Source: a virus (taxonomy: Duplodnaviria; Heunggongvirae; Uroviricota; Caudoviricetes). Taken from it: a stretch of DNA of 5,293 nt. Under the pieces are notes generated by a model. It was not told the DNA's origin and did no database searches. It was given only the letters and a program-made list of their open reading frames with translations. The stretch lies in the IMG/VR virus record IMGVR_UViG_2645727562_000005; one strand, 5' to 3'. Positions 1 through 5,293 of the stretch are shown here, piece by piece; position 1 is the first letter of the stretch, and every line of letters begins with the position of its first letter. The position numbers were made by a program, and so were the translations under genes.

Positions 1-1
1 C

Positions 2-418
2 GCTGTGATTCATATTGTTCCCAGAGTCGCCGGGGCCAAGTCAGGTGGCGTATTCCAGATTGTCCTGGGGGCTGCCGCCATTGCCGGATCATTCTTTACC
101 GCCGGAGCCACCCTTGCAGCATGGGGGGCAGCCATTGGGGCCGGTGGTATGACCGGCATCCTGTTTTCTCTCGGTGCCAGTATGGTGCTCGGTGGTGTGG
201 CGCAGATGCTGGCACCGAAAGCCAGAACTCCCCGTACACAGACAACGGATAACGGTAAGCAGAACACCTATTTCTCCTCACTGGATAACATGGTTGCCCA
301 GGGCAATGTTCTGCCCGTTCTGTACGGTGAAATGCGCGTGGGGTCGCGGGTGGTCTCTCAGGAGATCAGCACGGCAGACGAAGGGGATGGTGGTCAGGTT
401 GTAGTGATTGGTCGCTGA
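2..418 (+). CDS. I: Tail assembly protein I, C-terminal portion (5'-partial; start lies upstream of the window)
   Basis: The frame read from position 2 gives AVIHIVPRVAGAKSGGVFQIVLGAAAIAGSFF...EISTADEGDGGQVVVIGR, ending at TGA 416-418. From memory this matches the C-terminus of phage lambda gpI almost residue for residue, including the Gly/Ala-rich hydrophobic segment. The 'M' at position 5 in the ORF track is an internal GTG valine, not the true start. Confidence 0.9.
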   Translation, partial: AVIHIVPRVAGAKSGGVFQIVLGAAAIAGSFFTAGATLAAWGAAIGAGGMTGILFSLGASMVLGGVAQMLAPKARTPRTQTTDNGKQNTYFSSLDNMVAQGNVLPVLYGEMRVGSRVVSQEISTADEGDGGQVVVIGR

Positions 419-436
419 TGAAAAACGTTTTATGTG

Positions 437-456
437 AAACCGCCTCCGGGCGGTTT
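437..456 (+). promoter_or_regulatory. Intergenic GC-rich hairpin between I and J (8-bp stem AAACCGCC / GGCGGTTT, 4-nt loop TCCG) followed by a T-rich tract
   Basis: Perfect inverted repeat read directly from the sequence, 437-444 pairing with 449-456, then TTGTCGTTT. It lies in the 60-nt I-J spacer just upstream of the J ribosome-binding site. Function (partial terminator, RNA stability or translational element) is not established from sequence alone. Confidence 0.35.
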
Positions 457-478
457 TGTCGTTTATGGAGCGTTAGGA

Positions 479-3400
479 ATGGGTAAAGGCAGCAGTAAGG
501 GGCATACTCCGCGCGAAGCGAAGGACAACCTGAAGTCCACGCAGTTGCTGAGTGTGATCGATGCCATCAGCGAAGGGCCGATTGAAGGTCCGGTGGATGG
601 ATTAAAAAGCGTGCTGCTGAACAGTACGCCAGTGCTGGACACTGAGGGGAATACCAACATCTCCGGCGTCACGGTGGTGTTCCGGGCAGGTGAGCAGGAG
701 CAGACACCGCCGGAGGGATTTGAATCCTCCGGCTCCGAGACGGTGTTGGGTACGGAAGTGAAATACGACACGCCGATCACCCGCGCCATCACGTCGGCAA
801 ACATCGACCGACTGCGCTTTACCTTCGGTGTGCAGGCACTGGTGGAAACCACCTCAAAGGGGGACCGGAATCCGTCGGAAGTCCGCCTGCTGGTTCAGAT
901 ACAGCGTAACGGTGGCTGGGTGACGGAAAAAGACATCACCATTAAGGGCAAAACCACCTCGCAGTATCTGGCCTCGGTGGTGGTGGATAACCTGCCGCCG
1001 CGCCCGTTTAATATCCGGATGCGCAGAATGACGCCGGACAGCACCACAGACCAGCTGCAGAACAAAACGCTCTGGTCGTCATACACCGAAATCATCGATG
1101 TGAAACAGTGCTACCCGAACACGGCACTGGTCGGCGTGCAGGTGGACTCGGAACAGTTCGGCAGCCAGCAGGTGAGCCGTAATTATCATCTTCGCGGGCG
1201 CATTCTGCAGGTGCCGTCGAACTATAACCCGCAGACGCGGCAATACAGCGGTATCTGGGACGGAACGTTAAAACCGGCATACAGCAACAACATGGCCTGG
1301 TGTCTGTGGGATATGCTGACCCATCCGCGCTACGGCATGGGGAAACGTCTTGATGCGGCGGATGTGGATAAATGGGCGCTGTATGTCATCGGCCAGTACT
1401 GCGACCAGTCAGTGCCGGACGGTTTTGGCGGCACGGAGCCGCGCATCACCTGTAATGCCTACCTGACCACGCAGCGTAAGGCGTGGGATGTGCTCAGTGA
1501 TTTCTGCTCGGCGATGCGCTGTATGCCGGTATGGAACGGGCAGACGCTGACGTTCGTGCAGGACCGACCATCAGATAAGGTGTGGACCTATAACCGCAGT
1601 AATGTGGTGATGCCGGATGATGGCGCGCCGTTCCGCTACAGCTTCAGCGCCCTGAAGGACCGCCATAATGCCGTTGAGGTGAACTGGATTGACCCGAATA
1701 ACGGCTGGGAGACGGCGACAGAGCTTGTGGAGGACACGCAGGCCATTGCCCGTTACGGTCGTAACGTCACGAAGATGGATGCCTTTGGCTGTACCAGCCG
1801 GGGGCAGGCACACCGCGCCGGGCTGTGGCTGATTAAAACAGAACTGCTGGAAACGCAGACCGTGGACTTCAGCGTGGGTGCCGAAGGGCTTCGCCATGTG
1901 CCGGGCGATGTCATTGAAATCTGTGATGATGACTATGCCGGTATCAGCACCGGCGGGCGCGTGCTGGCGGTAAACAGCCAGACCCGGACGCTGACGCTCG
2001 ACCGTGAAATCACGCTGCCATCCTCCGGTACCACGCTGATAAGCCTGGTTGACGGAAGTGGCAATCCGGTCAGCGTGGAGGTCCAGTCCGTCACCGACGG
2101 CGTGAAGGTAAAAGTGAGCCGTGTTCCTGACGGCGTTGCCGAATACAGCGTATGGGGGCTGAAGTTGCCGACGTTGCGCCAGCGCCTGTTCCGCTGCGTG
2201 AGTATCCGTGAGAACGACGACGGCACGTATGCCATTACCGCCGTGCAGCATGTACCCGAAAAAGAAGCCATCGTGGATAACGGGGCGCACTTTGACGGCG
2301 ACCAGAGCGGCACGGTGAATGGCGTCACGCCGCCCGCGGTGCAGCACCTGACTGTCGAAGTCACCGCAGACAGCGGGGAATATCAGGTGCTGGCGCGCTG
2401 GGACACGCCGAAGGTGGTGAAGGGGGTGAGCTTCCTGCTTCGCCTGACCGTGGCAGCGGACGATGGCAGTGAGCGGCTGGTCAGTACGGCAAGGACGACG
2501 GAAACCACATACCGCTTCACGCAACTGGCGCCGGGGAACTACAGGCTGACTGTCCGGGCGGTAAATGCGTGGGGACAGCAGGGCGATCCGGCATCGGTAT
2601 CGTTCCGGATTGCCGCACCGGCAGCGCCGTCTCGGATTGAGCTGACACCGGGCTATTTTCAGATAACCGCCACGCCGCATCTTGCGGTTTATGATCCGAC
2701 GGTACAATTTGAGTTCTGGTTCTCGGAAACGCGGATTACCGATATCAGGCAGGTTGAAACCACAGCCCGCTACCTTGGCACGGGGCTGTACTGGATAGCC
2801 GCCAGTATCAATATCAAACCGGGCCATGATTATTACTTTTATATCCGCAGTGTGAACACCGTTGGCAAATCGGCATTCGTGGAGGCCGTCGGTCGGGCGA
2901 GCGATGATGCGGAAGGTTACCTGGATTTTTTCAAAGGCAAGATAACCGAATCCCATCTTGGTAAAGAGCTGCTGGAAAAAGTCGACCTGACGGAGGATAA
3001 CGCCAGCAAACTGGAGCAGTTTTCGAAAGAGTGGAAGGATGCTAACGATAAGTGGAATGCCATGTGGGGCGTCAAAATTGAGCAGACCAAAGACGGCAAA
3101 CATTATGTCGCGGGTATTGGCCTCAGCATGGAGGACACGGAGGAAGGCAAACTGAGCCAGTTTCTGGTTGCCGCCAATCGTATCGCGTTTATTGACCCGG
3201 CAAACGGGAATGAAACGCCGATGTTTGTGGCGCAGGGCAACCAGATATTCATGAACGACGTGTTCCTGAAGCGCCTGACGGCCCCCACCATTACCAGCGG
3301 TGGAAATCCACCGGCATTTTCCCTGACACCGGACGGAAAGCTGACTGCTAAAAATGCGGATATCAGTGGCAGTGTGAATGCGAACTCCGGGACGCTCAAC

Positions 3401-3874
3401 AACGTCACGATTAATGAGAACTGTCAGATTAAGGGGAAACTGTCAGCCAACCAGATTGAAGGCGATATAGTCAAAACAGTGGGTAAGGCTTTTCCGCGGG
3501 ACTCCCGGGCACCGGAGCGGTGGCCATCAGGGACCATTACCGTCAGGGTTTATGACGATCAGCCGTTTGACCGGCAGATTGTTATTCCGGCGGTGGCATT
3601 CAGTGGCGCTAAGCATGAGAGAGAGCATACTGATATTTACTCCTCATGCCGTCTGATAGTGCGGAAAAACGGTGCTGAAATTTATAACCGTACCGCGCTG
3701 GATAATACGCTGATTTACAGTGGCGTTATTGATATGCCTGCCGGTCACGGTCACATAACGCTGGAGTTTTCGGTATCAGCATGGCTGGTGAATAACTGGT
3801 ATCCCACAGCAAGTATCAGCGATTTGCTGGTTGTGGTGATGAAGAAAGCCACCGCAGGCATCAGTATCAGCTGA
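479..3874 (+). CDS. J: Central tail fiber / host specificity protein J (tail tip), 1131 aa
   Basis: Uninterrupted ORF ending at TGA 3872-3874. The start is placed at ATG 479 ([38 protein letters not shown]...), which matches the lambda gpJ N-terminus from memory and has a GGAG Shine-Dalgarno at 467-470, 8 nt upstream. The GTG at 434 used in the ORF track would add 15 residues with no RBS. The protein is near-identical to lambda J over roughly the first 970 residues, then divergent at the C-terminus. Confidence 0.95.
3398..3871 (+). other. J: Divergent C-terminal receptor-binding region of J (about 158 aa)
   Basis: From about ...[30 protein letters not shown]... to the C-terminus ...[17 protein letters not shown] the protein departs from the lambda gpJ C-terminus as I recall it (…SNVTIAENCTINGTLRAEKIVGDIVKAASAAFPR…VMVIKKQALGISVV). 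Short conserved islands remain (WPSGT, FDRQIV, VDMPAG.G, KK..GIS), so it is a homologous but different receptor-binding domain. The exact boundary is approximate. Confidence 0.7.
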
Positions 3875-3893
3875 ATTTTATAACCCATATACG

Positions 3894-3917
3894 GGCGCCA
3901 GAAATGGCGCCTTTTTT
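3894..3917 (+). terminator. Rho-independent terminator downstream of J
   Basis: GGCGCC (3894-3899), loop AGAAAT, GGCGCC (3906-3911), followed directly by TTTTTT (3912-3917). It starts 20 nt after the J stop codon. Confidence 0.7.
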
Positions 3918-3941
3918 ATTGCAGAAAAGCGAGAGGTAATT

Positions 3942-4013
3942 ATGCGTAAACTTTATGCCGCCATTTTGTCCGCAGCCATTTGTCTGGCCGTATCCGGTGC
4001 GCCTGCATGGGCG
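3942..4013 (+). other. lom: Predicted Sec signal peptide of Lom (about 24 aa, cleavage after AWA)
   Basis: Positively charged N-terminus (MRK), a hydrophobic core (LYAAILSAAICLAV) and an A-x-A motif (AWA|SEHQ). The cleavage position is inferred, not computed. Confidence 0.65.
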
Positions 4014-4541
4014 TCTGAACATCAGTCCACGCTGAGCGCGGGGTATCTTCATGCCCGGACCAACGTTCCCGGCAGTGATGATCTTAACGGGATTAACGTG
4101 AAATACCGTTATGAGTTTACGGATACGCTGGGGCTGGTGACGTCATTCAGCTATGCAGGAGACAAGAATCGCCAGCTGACCCGTTACAGCGATACCCGCT
4201 GGCATGAAGATTCCGTGCGTAACCGCTGGTTCAGCGTGATGGCGGGGCCGTCTGTGCGCGTGAATGAATTGTTCAGCGCGTATGCGATGGCGGGTGTGTC
4301 TTACAGCCGTGTGTCGACTTTCTCCGGAGATTATCTGCAGGTGACCGACAACAAGGGGAAAACGCATGATGTGCTGACCGGAAGTGATGACGGTCGCCAC
4401 AGCAACACGTCTCTGGCGTGGGGAGCTGGCGTGCAGTTTAACCCGACCGAATCCGTGGCCATTGATATTGCTTATGAAGGCTCCGGCAGTGGCGACTGGC
4501 GCACTGACGGTTTCATCGTGGGTGTCGGTTATAAGTTCTGA
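3942..4541 (+). CDS. lom: Lom outer membrane protein (Ail/Lom/PagC/OmpX family 8-stranded beta-barrel), 199 aa
   Basis: ATG at 3942 with a GAGAGG Shine-Dalgarno at 3931-3936; stop TGA at 4539-4541. The translation MRKLYAAILSAAICLAVSGAPAWASEHQSTLSAGYLHA...GSGSGDWRTDGFIVGVGYKF matches lambda Lom from memory, with an N-terminal signal peptide and a C-terminal aromatic residue (…GYKF) typical of outer-membrane beta-barrels. Confidence 0.95.
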   Translation: MRKLYAAILSAAICLAVSGAPAWASEHQSTLSAGYLHARTNVPGSDDLNGINVKYRYEFTDTLGLVTSFSYAGDKNRQLTRYSDTRWHEDSVRNRWFSVMAGPSVRVNELFSAYAMAGVSYSRVSTFSGDYLQVTDNKGKTHDVLTGSDDGRHSNTSLAWGAGVQFNPTESVAIDIAYEGSGSGDWRTDGFIVGVGYKF

Positions 4542-4568
4542 TTAGCCAGGTAACACAGTGTTATGACA

Positions 4569-4594
4569 GCCCGCCGGTTCAGGCGGGCTTTTTT
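4569..4594 (+). terminator. Rho-independent terminator downstream of lom
   Basis: GCCCGCC (4569-4575), loop GGTTCA, GGCGGGC (4582-4588), followed by TTTTTT (4589-4594). It starts 28 nt after the lom stop and ends 11 nt before the stf start codon. Confidence 0.75.
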
Positions 4595-4605
4595 GTGGGG
4601 TGAAT

Positions 4606-5293
4606 ATGGCAGTAAAGATTTCAGGTGTACTGAAAGACGGCACAGGAAAACCGGTAGAGAACTGCACCATTCAACTGAAAGCCAGACGGACCAGCAGCAC
4701 GGTGGTGGTGAACACGCTGGCCTCAGAAAATCCGGATGAAGCCGGGCGTTACAGCATGGACGTTGAGTACGGTCAGTACAGAGTCATTCTGTTGGTGGAA
4801 GGAGTCCCGCCGTCACATGCCGGGACCATCACCGTGTATGAAGATTCTCAACCCGGTACGCTGAATGATTTTCTCGGTGCCATGACGGAGGAGGACGCCC
4901 GGCCGGAGGCACTGCGCCGTTTTGAACAGATGGTGGAAGAGGTGGCGCGTCACGCTGAGGAGGCGAAGAAGAATGCCGGAGAGGCGGAGACGTCAGCGAG
5001 GAATGCCGGCATATCAGCCAGTCAGGCAGAAGAGAGCGCTGCAAATGCTGACACTTCAGCAGGGGAGGCATCGGAGTCAGCCCGGCAGGCGGCAGAAAGT
5101 GCAGCCTCAGCAAAGCAGTCAGAGGATGCGTCCTCGTCCTCGGCTTCTGCGGCCGCTCAAAAAGCCAGTGAGTCATCACAAAGTGCAGCAGAAGCTGAAT
5201 TGTCAAGAAAGACGGCAGAAAGTGCAGCCGGTAATGCAGCCAGGGATGCAACGACCGCAACAGAAAAAGCCCGGGAGTCAGCAGAAAGCGCAC
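4606..5293 (+). CDS. stf: Side tail fiber protein Stf, N-terminal portion (3'-partial; runs off the window end)
   Basis: ATG at 4606 preceded by a G-rich Shine-Dalgarno-like GTGGGG (4595-4600). I translated the frame by hand: MAVKISGVLKDGTGKPVENCTIQLKARRTSSTVVVNTLASENPDEAGRYSMDVEYGQY...TITVYEDSQPGTLNDF..., with no stop codon to the end of the window. It matches the lambda Stf (orf-401) N-terminus from memory and is followed by an Ala/Ser/Glu-rich repetitive segment. It is missing from the ORF track only because it has no stop in the window. Confidence 0.88.
   Translation, partial: MAVKISGVLKDGTGKPVENCTIQLKARRTSSTVVVNTLASENPDEAGRYSMDVEYGQYRVILLVEGVPPSHAGTITVYEDSQPGTLNDFLGAMTEEDARPEALRRFEQMVEEVARHAEEAKKNAGEAETSARNAGISASQAEESAANADTSAGEASESARQAAESAASAKQSEDASSSSASAAAQKASESSQSAAEAELSRKTAESAAGNAARDATTATEKARESAESA

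Follow-up and report, generated by a model that had tools for sequence, protein, structure and literature searches.

A two-allele segment on the predicted second extracellular loop of a lambdoid prophage Lom protein

The lom gene in this stretch of viral DNA raises the question of whether the segment encoded at positions 4155-4190 is a locally divergent, surface-exposed loop of an otherwise lambda-like Lom protein, as had been predicted by reading the letters alone, and, if it is divergent, from which relative. What Lom does has been asked ever since the 'moron' concept was put forward. The window analysed here is the whole stretch of 5,293 nucleotides from IMG/VR virus record IMGVR_UViG_2645727562_000005.

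Organisation of the window and identity of its Lom

The ORF list and comparison with phages lambda and 434 identified the window as a + strand tail module of lambdoid type, with the following features:

5-418, + strand: end of gene I (ORF list, comparison with lambda and 434)
479-3874, + strand: gene J, from the ATG at 479, a start common to lambda and 434
3400-3874, + strand: C-terminal, presumed receptor-binding part of J, type 'J0' (about 55% nucleotide identity to lambda and to 434)
3893-3920, + strand: terminator-like hairpin with T tract in the J/lom intergenic region (consensus scan; the 434 counterpart is annotated 'terminator')
3942-4541, + strand: lom (ORF of 199 aa; full-length Pfam PF06316)
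3942-4013, + strand: signal peptide, residues 1-24, with a probable cleavage site between AWA and SEHQ (read from the sequence)
4568-4599, + strand: terminator-like hairpin with T tract 3′ of lom (consensus scan; annotated 'terminator' in 434; near-identical in lambda)
from about 4606, + strand: start of stf, the side tail fibre gene (comparison with lambda and 434)

In the mechanical ORF list J begins at a GTG at 434 and has 1146 aa; the ATG start at 479 (MGKGSSKGH...) gives 1131 aa. The lom gene is bracketed by the terminator-like hairpins (3893-3912 and 4568-4589, or 3893-3920 and 4568-4599 with the T tracts), and a gene lying between such hairpins has the classic 'moron' layout. No sigma-70-like promoter was found in a simple consensus scan of window positions 3700-4750. 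A reverse-strand ORF of 85 aa at 4143-4400, which overlaps the segment, was rejected as a mechanical ORF within the well-supported lom.

The product of lom matched Pfam family PF06316 (Ail_Lom) over residues 1-199 of 199, with a score of 395 bits against a cut-off of 23 and an E value of 8e-119. The family signature could also be read in the protein: a Sec signal peptide (MRKLYAAILSAAICLAVSGAPAWA, followed by SE) and, in ...GVGYKF, the C-terminal aromatic residue that serves as an outer-membrane insertion signal. The solved mature chains of Ail and OmpX align to the window's Lom from residue 26-29 onward, and AlphaFold2 gave the leader region as a helix at residues 2-18 followed by a low-confidence stretch at 19-25. 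At the nucleotide level, lom is 98.2% identical to an Stx2-phage lom and 96.2% to that of phage 434; RefSeq E. coli genes, which carry the annotation Ail/Lom family, reach 99.5%. In phage 434 and Stx prophages the same gene occupies the same slot between J and stf; the 434 protein differs from that of the window at seven amino acids, none of them in the variable patch (residues 73-81), which reads GDKNRQLTR in both. Given its length of 199 aa, indel-free alignment, identity of at least about 85% and place in the J-stf slot, we assign the window's Lom by sequence to the 199-aa clade of phage 434 and E. coli prophages, not to the lambda clade. The gene and its exact cassette are already present in public annotation, in phage 434 and in thousands of E. 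coli genomes.

Of 5426 complete E. coli genomes, 4697 (about 87%) carried lom of this clade, with a median of 2 copies and a maximum of 14. Three residues of the window's Lom are rare among the 156 unique clade proteins: L110 (W in 152; window 4269-4271), S120 (A in 146; 4299-4301) and Q133 (R in 141; 4338-4340). Residue 110 lies within the predicted periplasmic turn T2.

Lambda Lom (NP_040601, UniProt P03701; PDB 9wso chain C) has the same family, genomic slot and fold class as the window's Lom, and the original prediction took the two to be near-identical outside the segment. Pairwise alignment, which had been proposed as a check, showed that premise to be wrong: lambda Lom is 46% identical over 187 aligned residues, and nucleotide identity is about 55% at window 3900-4460. 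The sequence that had been given for lambda, SFSYANAEDEQKTHYSDT, is not lambda's, which reads SLGFAASKKSSTVMTGEDTFHYES at this place (NC_001416, lom at 18965-19585); it is, however, a genuine common allele of the 199-aa prophage Lom clade (P0028, P0042, P0059). The corresponding arm of lambda Lom, AASKKSSTV, is neither of the cassette alleles described below, and the protein, of 206 aa, is of a different clade. A difference of seven residues in total length was correctly foreseen (199 versus 206 aa), but it does not arise in the segment: loop 1 has an 8-residue gap past about residue 41, partly balanced by one additional residue in the signal peptide. These findings chiefly correct the earlier assignment: the protein is a Lom of the 434 and E. 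coli prophage clade, and its patch is one of two common alleles.

The lambda-like surroundings of the gene were probably the source of the earlier assignment. Identity of the window to lambda is 91-99% at positions 1-3300, 83% at 3301-3450, about 55% at roughly 3450-4350 (the C-terminal end of J and the 5′ 85% of lom), 67% by 4500 and about 90% at 4500-4950, and the sequences have diverged past 4950. The 3′ end of lambda lom (about 100 nt) and the downstream intergenic region are near-identical to those of the window, and the last 25 or so residues of lambda Lom (from D175) show one difference from the window's. A mosaic junction relative to lambda thus lies within lom at about 4460-4500 (codons ~173-186), with about 55-67% identity upstream of it and 90-100% from about 4470 across the lom stop and the intergenic terminator to ~350 nt into stf. 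Past about 4950 (window 4950-5293), stf has about 50-60% identity to lambda, yet 94-98% to phage 434. Junctions of the window relative to lambda or 434 were located near 3400, 3900, 4460 and 4950.

Predicted fold and position of the segment

Positions 4155-4190 do encode AGDKNRQLTRYS, residues 72-83 of Lom, within ...SFSYAGDKNRQLTRYSDT... AlphaFold2 was run from 29 homologues, and one of the five models was confident (pLDDT 80.8, 53, 33, 31 and 31). In that best model, strands were predicted at residues 29-40, 47-58, 63-81, 87-106, 111-135, 141-166 (with a short break), 172-181 and 188-198, forming the eight-stranded antiparallel beta-barrel of the Ail/OmpX type. Foldseek searches with the model returned Y. 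pestis Ail (3qrc, TM 0.86) and OmpX (1qj9, TM 0.84), and the entire mature part of the window's Lom can be aligned with the solved chains of Ail (3qra) and lambda Lom (9wso_C). Ail, PagC/Rck and OmpX (3qra/3qrc, 2n2l, 1qj8/1qj9) likewise have an eight-stranded barrel with four extracellular loops; they are about 30% identical to the window's Lom, in which extracellular loops 2 and 3 (EL2 and EL3) are longer.

In the model, residues 63-81 are beta3 and residues 87-106 beta4, joined by a turn at 82-86. Ten of the 23 residues at 73-95 are charged, and they lie beyond Y71 and W96, which are likely the aromatic girdle. Over 56 distant family members, the strands had entropies of 1.3-1.8 bits and EL1-EL4 of 2.8-3.4 bits, with 3.33 bits at residues 73-81, 3.44 at 82-86 and 3.23 at 87-95; indels occurred in EL1, EL2 and EL3, with insertions of up to 14 residues directly after the patch. 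The 56 representatives of PF06316 thus have conserved strands and hypervariable extracellular loops, and divergent loops on conserved barrels have been described for the family (PMC3417512). We take the loop terms from the literature on Ail and PagC (PMC3417512, PMC11322160); EL2 and EL3 of the Ail/OmpX group are extended hairpins, as is Lom EL2, and bear functional and LPS-contacting residues (PMC3417512, PMC11322160).

The modelled strands and turn, the match to Ail and OmpX, the charged residues past the girdle, and the family entropy and indels together support the placement of residues 73-81 on the exposed ascending arm of EL2, in the distal half of beta3. The surface location proposed for the segment was borne out in this respect, and the AlphaFold model, suggested with it as a check, puts the patch on that arm, as an extended beta-strand and not as coil. 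The features of this region are as follows:

4050-4088, + strand: extracellular loop 1 region, residues 37-49, the second variable block (residue entropy, lambda Lom alignments, AlphaFold2 strands 29-40 and 47-58)
4151-4181, + strand: hyperdivergent dimorphic cassette, gene nt 210-240, codons 70-80 (15 near-fixed class differences in 31 nt)
4182-4184, + strand: codon 81, Arg in the window, an R/H polymorphism partly independent of the cassette (four gametes between nt 218 and nt 242; allele table)
4185-4199, + strand: EL2 hairpin tip, residues 82-86, YSDTR (AlphaFold2 turn; near-invariant in the 199-aa clade)

If the alternation of L63, L65, F69 and Y71 continues into the patch, positions 73, 75, 77, 79 and 81 would face outward; such in/out assignments come from sequence alternation, the register of which could be shifted by a beta-bulge.

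Variation within the 199-aa clade was determined from 238 lom genes of exactly 600 nt and free of indels, taken from IMG/VR proviral contigs; the samples of contigs used here were picked by similarity or by cassette string. It falls in three blocks, the signal peptide (residues 4-25), loop 1 (37-49) and the patch (73-81), and the long loop 3 region (130-155) and all transmembrane strands are near-invariant. Entropy within the clade is at most 0.10 bits at residues 82-98. The descending arm (87-98) does not vary in the clade, so that variation of the EL2 hairpin is limited to one face. Judged from the strand registry, the tip of loop 1 would adjoin the ascending arm, and both variable blocks of the mature protein may thus belong to a single continuous surface.

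The signal peptide is also dimorphic in the 199-aa clade (window 3951-4016, codons 4-25), reading LYAAILSAAICLAVSGAPAWAS or LCAVILSAVVWLVAAGTPASAA, with about a dozen differences between them. The signal-peptide types reassort with the loop alleles, and such variation is unusual for a cleaved leader.

Two alleles of the cassette and their exchange

In the 238 genes, residues 73-81 read GDKNRQLT(R/H) in about 90, referred to as the basic allele, which is that of the window and of phage 434, and NA(E/K)DEQKTH in about 148, the acidic or neutral allele; these counts come from the IMG/VR samples described above and are not population estimates of frequency. Few single-residue variants of either allele were found among the 238 genes. 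Two exact-string scans of IMG/VR gave at least 120 matches each. The 199-aa homologues in protein databases split in two at the same place, with ...SFSYAGDKNRQLTRYSDT... in one group and ...SFSYANAEDEQKTHYSDT... in the other. The net charge of the nine residues is +2 for GDKNRQLTR, 0 for NAKDEQKTH and -2 for NAEDEQKTH. On the outward face, as read from the alternation pattern, a swap would replace a basic stripe (K75, R77 and R81) by E/K75, E77, K79 and H81.

The two alleles are of equal length and differ at about 16 nt of the 27-nt patch, and divergence between the classes drops to 0.02-0.08 just outside window 4151-4181. Even where the residue is conserved, as at A72, Q78 and T80, the allele classes use different codons. 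When the window was compared with the nearest gene of acidic type, L221, 19 of the 46 nucleotide differences fell within a 33-nt island (hypergeometric P = 5e-15). The local divergence that had been predicted is therefore real with respect to the alternative allele, but not with respect to lambda.

By the Nei-Gojobori method, pS was 0.95 and pN 0.50 in the patch, as against 0.20 and 0.031 in the remaining mature protein, giving pN/pS of 0.53 and 0.15, respectively. The cassette alleles are old, since their synonymous sites are saturated, and for the same reason dN/dS is uninformative for positive selection. With an uninformative ratio and a patch pN/pS below 1 (0.53), the diversifying selection invoked in the original prediction is no more than plausible. 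The pattern reads as that of an old two-allele cassette moved by recombination, and not of recent selection on point mutations. In Citrobacter and other relatives of 70-75% identity the corresponding residues are GG(N/K)DR(K/Q)MTY, which is nearer to the window's allele, and this hints that the window's allele type is the older of the two. As to the origin of the NAEDEQKTH cassette, neither a similar string nor a donor lineage was found among the 56 distant family representatives.

The cassette reassorts with the signal-peptide and loop-1 haplotypes. Between the basic gene L159 and the acidic/neutral gene L145 there are 16 differences within the island and 4 in the 566 nt outside it, and the pairs L153/L129 and L159/L100 have zero differences within 100 nt on each side of the island. 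All four gametes were observed between the island and sites 12-14 nt upstream and 2 nt downstream. Both alleles were found within one genome in two cases, L017/L185 and L033/L158 (IMG genomes 2541047934 and 2534681627). From the confinement of the differences to the island on near-identical backgrounds and the co-residence of both alleles, short-tract homologous recombination appears to move the cassette between near-identical lom genes, and co-resident prophage lom copies are a plausible donor pool.

A cassette so sharply bounded, in a surface protein of a phage-derived element, also recalls programmed hypervariation, either as the target of a diversity-generating retroelement (DGR) or as an antigenic-variation cassette fed from silent donors. 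Direct comparison of the cassettes showed substitutions of all types, not adenine-specific ones, and there are two main alleles and no cloud of variants. Within the 5.3-kb window no second copy of the cassette was found even with 3 mismatches allowed, and no reverse transcriptase was evident among its ORFs. On these grounds (two alleles, mixed substitutions, no second copy and no reverse transcriptase ORF in the window) the mechanism was rejected, and we give it hardly any chance of being correct.

In the reading that we prefer, and hold to be probable as a whole, an old two-allele cassette on the EL2 arm is swapped by recombination and kept as a surface determinant. On this reading the segment at 4155-4190 forms the membrane-distal part of beta3, the ascending arm of EL2 in the 199-aa eight-stranded Ail/Lom barrel; the cassette of about 31 nt (4151-4181) segregates as two alleles among E. 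coli lambdoid prophages; short-tract homologous recombination shuffles it between otherwise near-identical lom genes; and the dimorphism is most likely kept by balancing or diversifying selection on a surface determinant. Candidates for the trait under selection are what Lom binds, what binds Lom, and how Lom sits in the LPS. From its predicted position, the cassette would be well placed to alter contacts with LPS or the way in which ligands, antibodies or phages recognise Lom.

Mosaicism is notorious in lambdoid phages, and the island could instead be a neutral relic of recombination with a divergent lom lineage, kept by drift or hitch-hiking. The window is itself a mosaic, with the junctions near 3400, 3900, 4460 and 4950 given above, and the synonymous sites of the island are as diverged as the non-synonymous ones (pS 0.95), as expected of imported old sequence. 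However, the position of the island matches the exposed EL2 arm, with conservation resuming at its edges; variable blocks are otherwise found in the signal peptide and EL1, the transmembrane strands being conserved; and a swap shifts the net charge by up to four units. Moreover, both alleles are abundant, co-resident and repeatedly re-exchanged onto near-identical backgrounds. We therefore regard a neutral origin as unlikely and the selected surface cassette as the better account. What results is a natural charge swap (+2, 0 or -2) on an exposed EL2 arm, in a gene carried by about 87% of complete E. coli genomes and often in several copies.

Association of the cassette with the tail protein J

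A further possibility, which we judge to be improbable, is that the EL2 arm is co-adapted with the J end of its own phage, Lom acting against adsorption or superinfection by phages of its own kind. Both adhesion and defence against lambda have been reported for lambda Lom (10.1101/2025.02.28.640651). According to this 2025 preprint, its expression gives strong protection against lambda-vir but not against T7, and the authors proposed that Lom prevents superinfection or non-productive adsorption (bioRxiv 10.1101/2025.02.28.640651). This anti-phage activity is known for over-expressed lambda Lom only, a protein of a clade other than the window's.

To relate J to the cassette, J types were defined by clustering the last 160 residues of the J upstream of each lom, in a sample picked by cassette string alone. 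Among the matches listed, J0, the type of the window, was found with 15 basic and 78 acidic/neutral cassettes, J1, the 434 type, with 42 and 4, and J2 with 23 and 1. The association was not monotonic along the gene: among the matches listed, Cramer's V between J type and lom sites was 0.72 in the island, 0.37 in every lom segment nearer to J, and about 0.2 downstream. A first sample showed this pattern as well. In the other clades, all 9 cases of lambda-type Lom came with the lambda J end (although the 9 may be lambda itself), and the 207-aa Lom clade was found mostly with another J type.

A peak of this kind, in which association with J is stronger in the island than in the sequence between them, is what co-selection would produce, and it is no more than suggestive of a closer link of the receptor-binding end of J with the cassette allele than with the lom sequence in between. 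J and lom are, however, adjacent, and linkage and shared ancestry would give an association without function; the statistics were also computed on non-independent samples with kinship ignored. Recombinants between J and cassette were found in both directions, the window itself being a 'mismatched' one in which J0 stands with the basic cassette. The association of J type with the cassette, about twice as strong as with the lom sequence between the two, does raise the more specific idea of EL2 as a specificity determinant matched to its own J end, and of Lom as a self-directed anti-adsorption or superinfection-exclusion protein; we think this quite doubtful. If the cassette did set phage specificity, this would explain why lom adjoins J, and the two alleles would be a ready-made pair for experiments. 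The selected, recombination-swapped surface cassette is still the explanation that we favour.

The J end of the window (3400-3900, codons ~975-1131) differs from those of both lambda and 434, and the remaining J is 90-99% identical to both. J0 is thus a third type of J end, and the most common one among the sampled E. coli proviral contigs; its breakpoints lie near 3400 and near 3900, the latter in the J-lom intergenic terminator region. The 207-aa proteins (IMG/VR loci L490-L525) form a third Lom clade, whose identity is about 61% with lambda Lom and about 46% with the Lom of the window; this clade is frequent in E. coli proviral contigs, and its usual J end is about 78% identical to type J2. 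A literature search found no paper on PDB 9wso, in which lambda Lom is apparently held in a complex. The lambda Lom structure is solved there as chain C of a multi-chain entry, and its partner chains might show the ligand of Lom.
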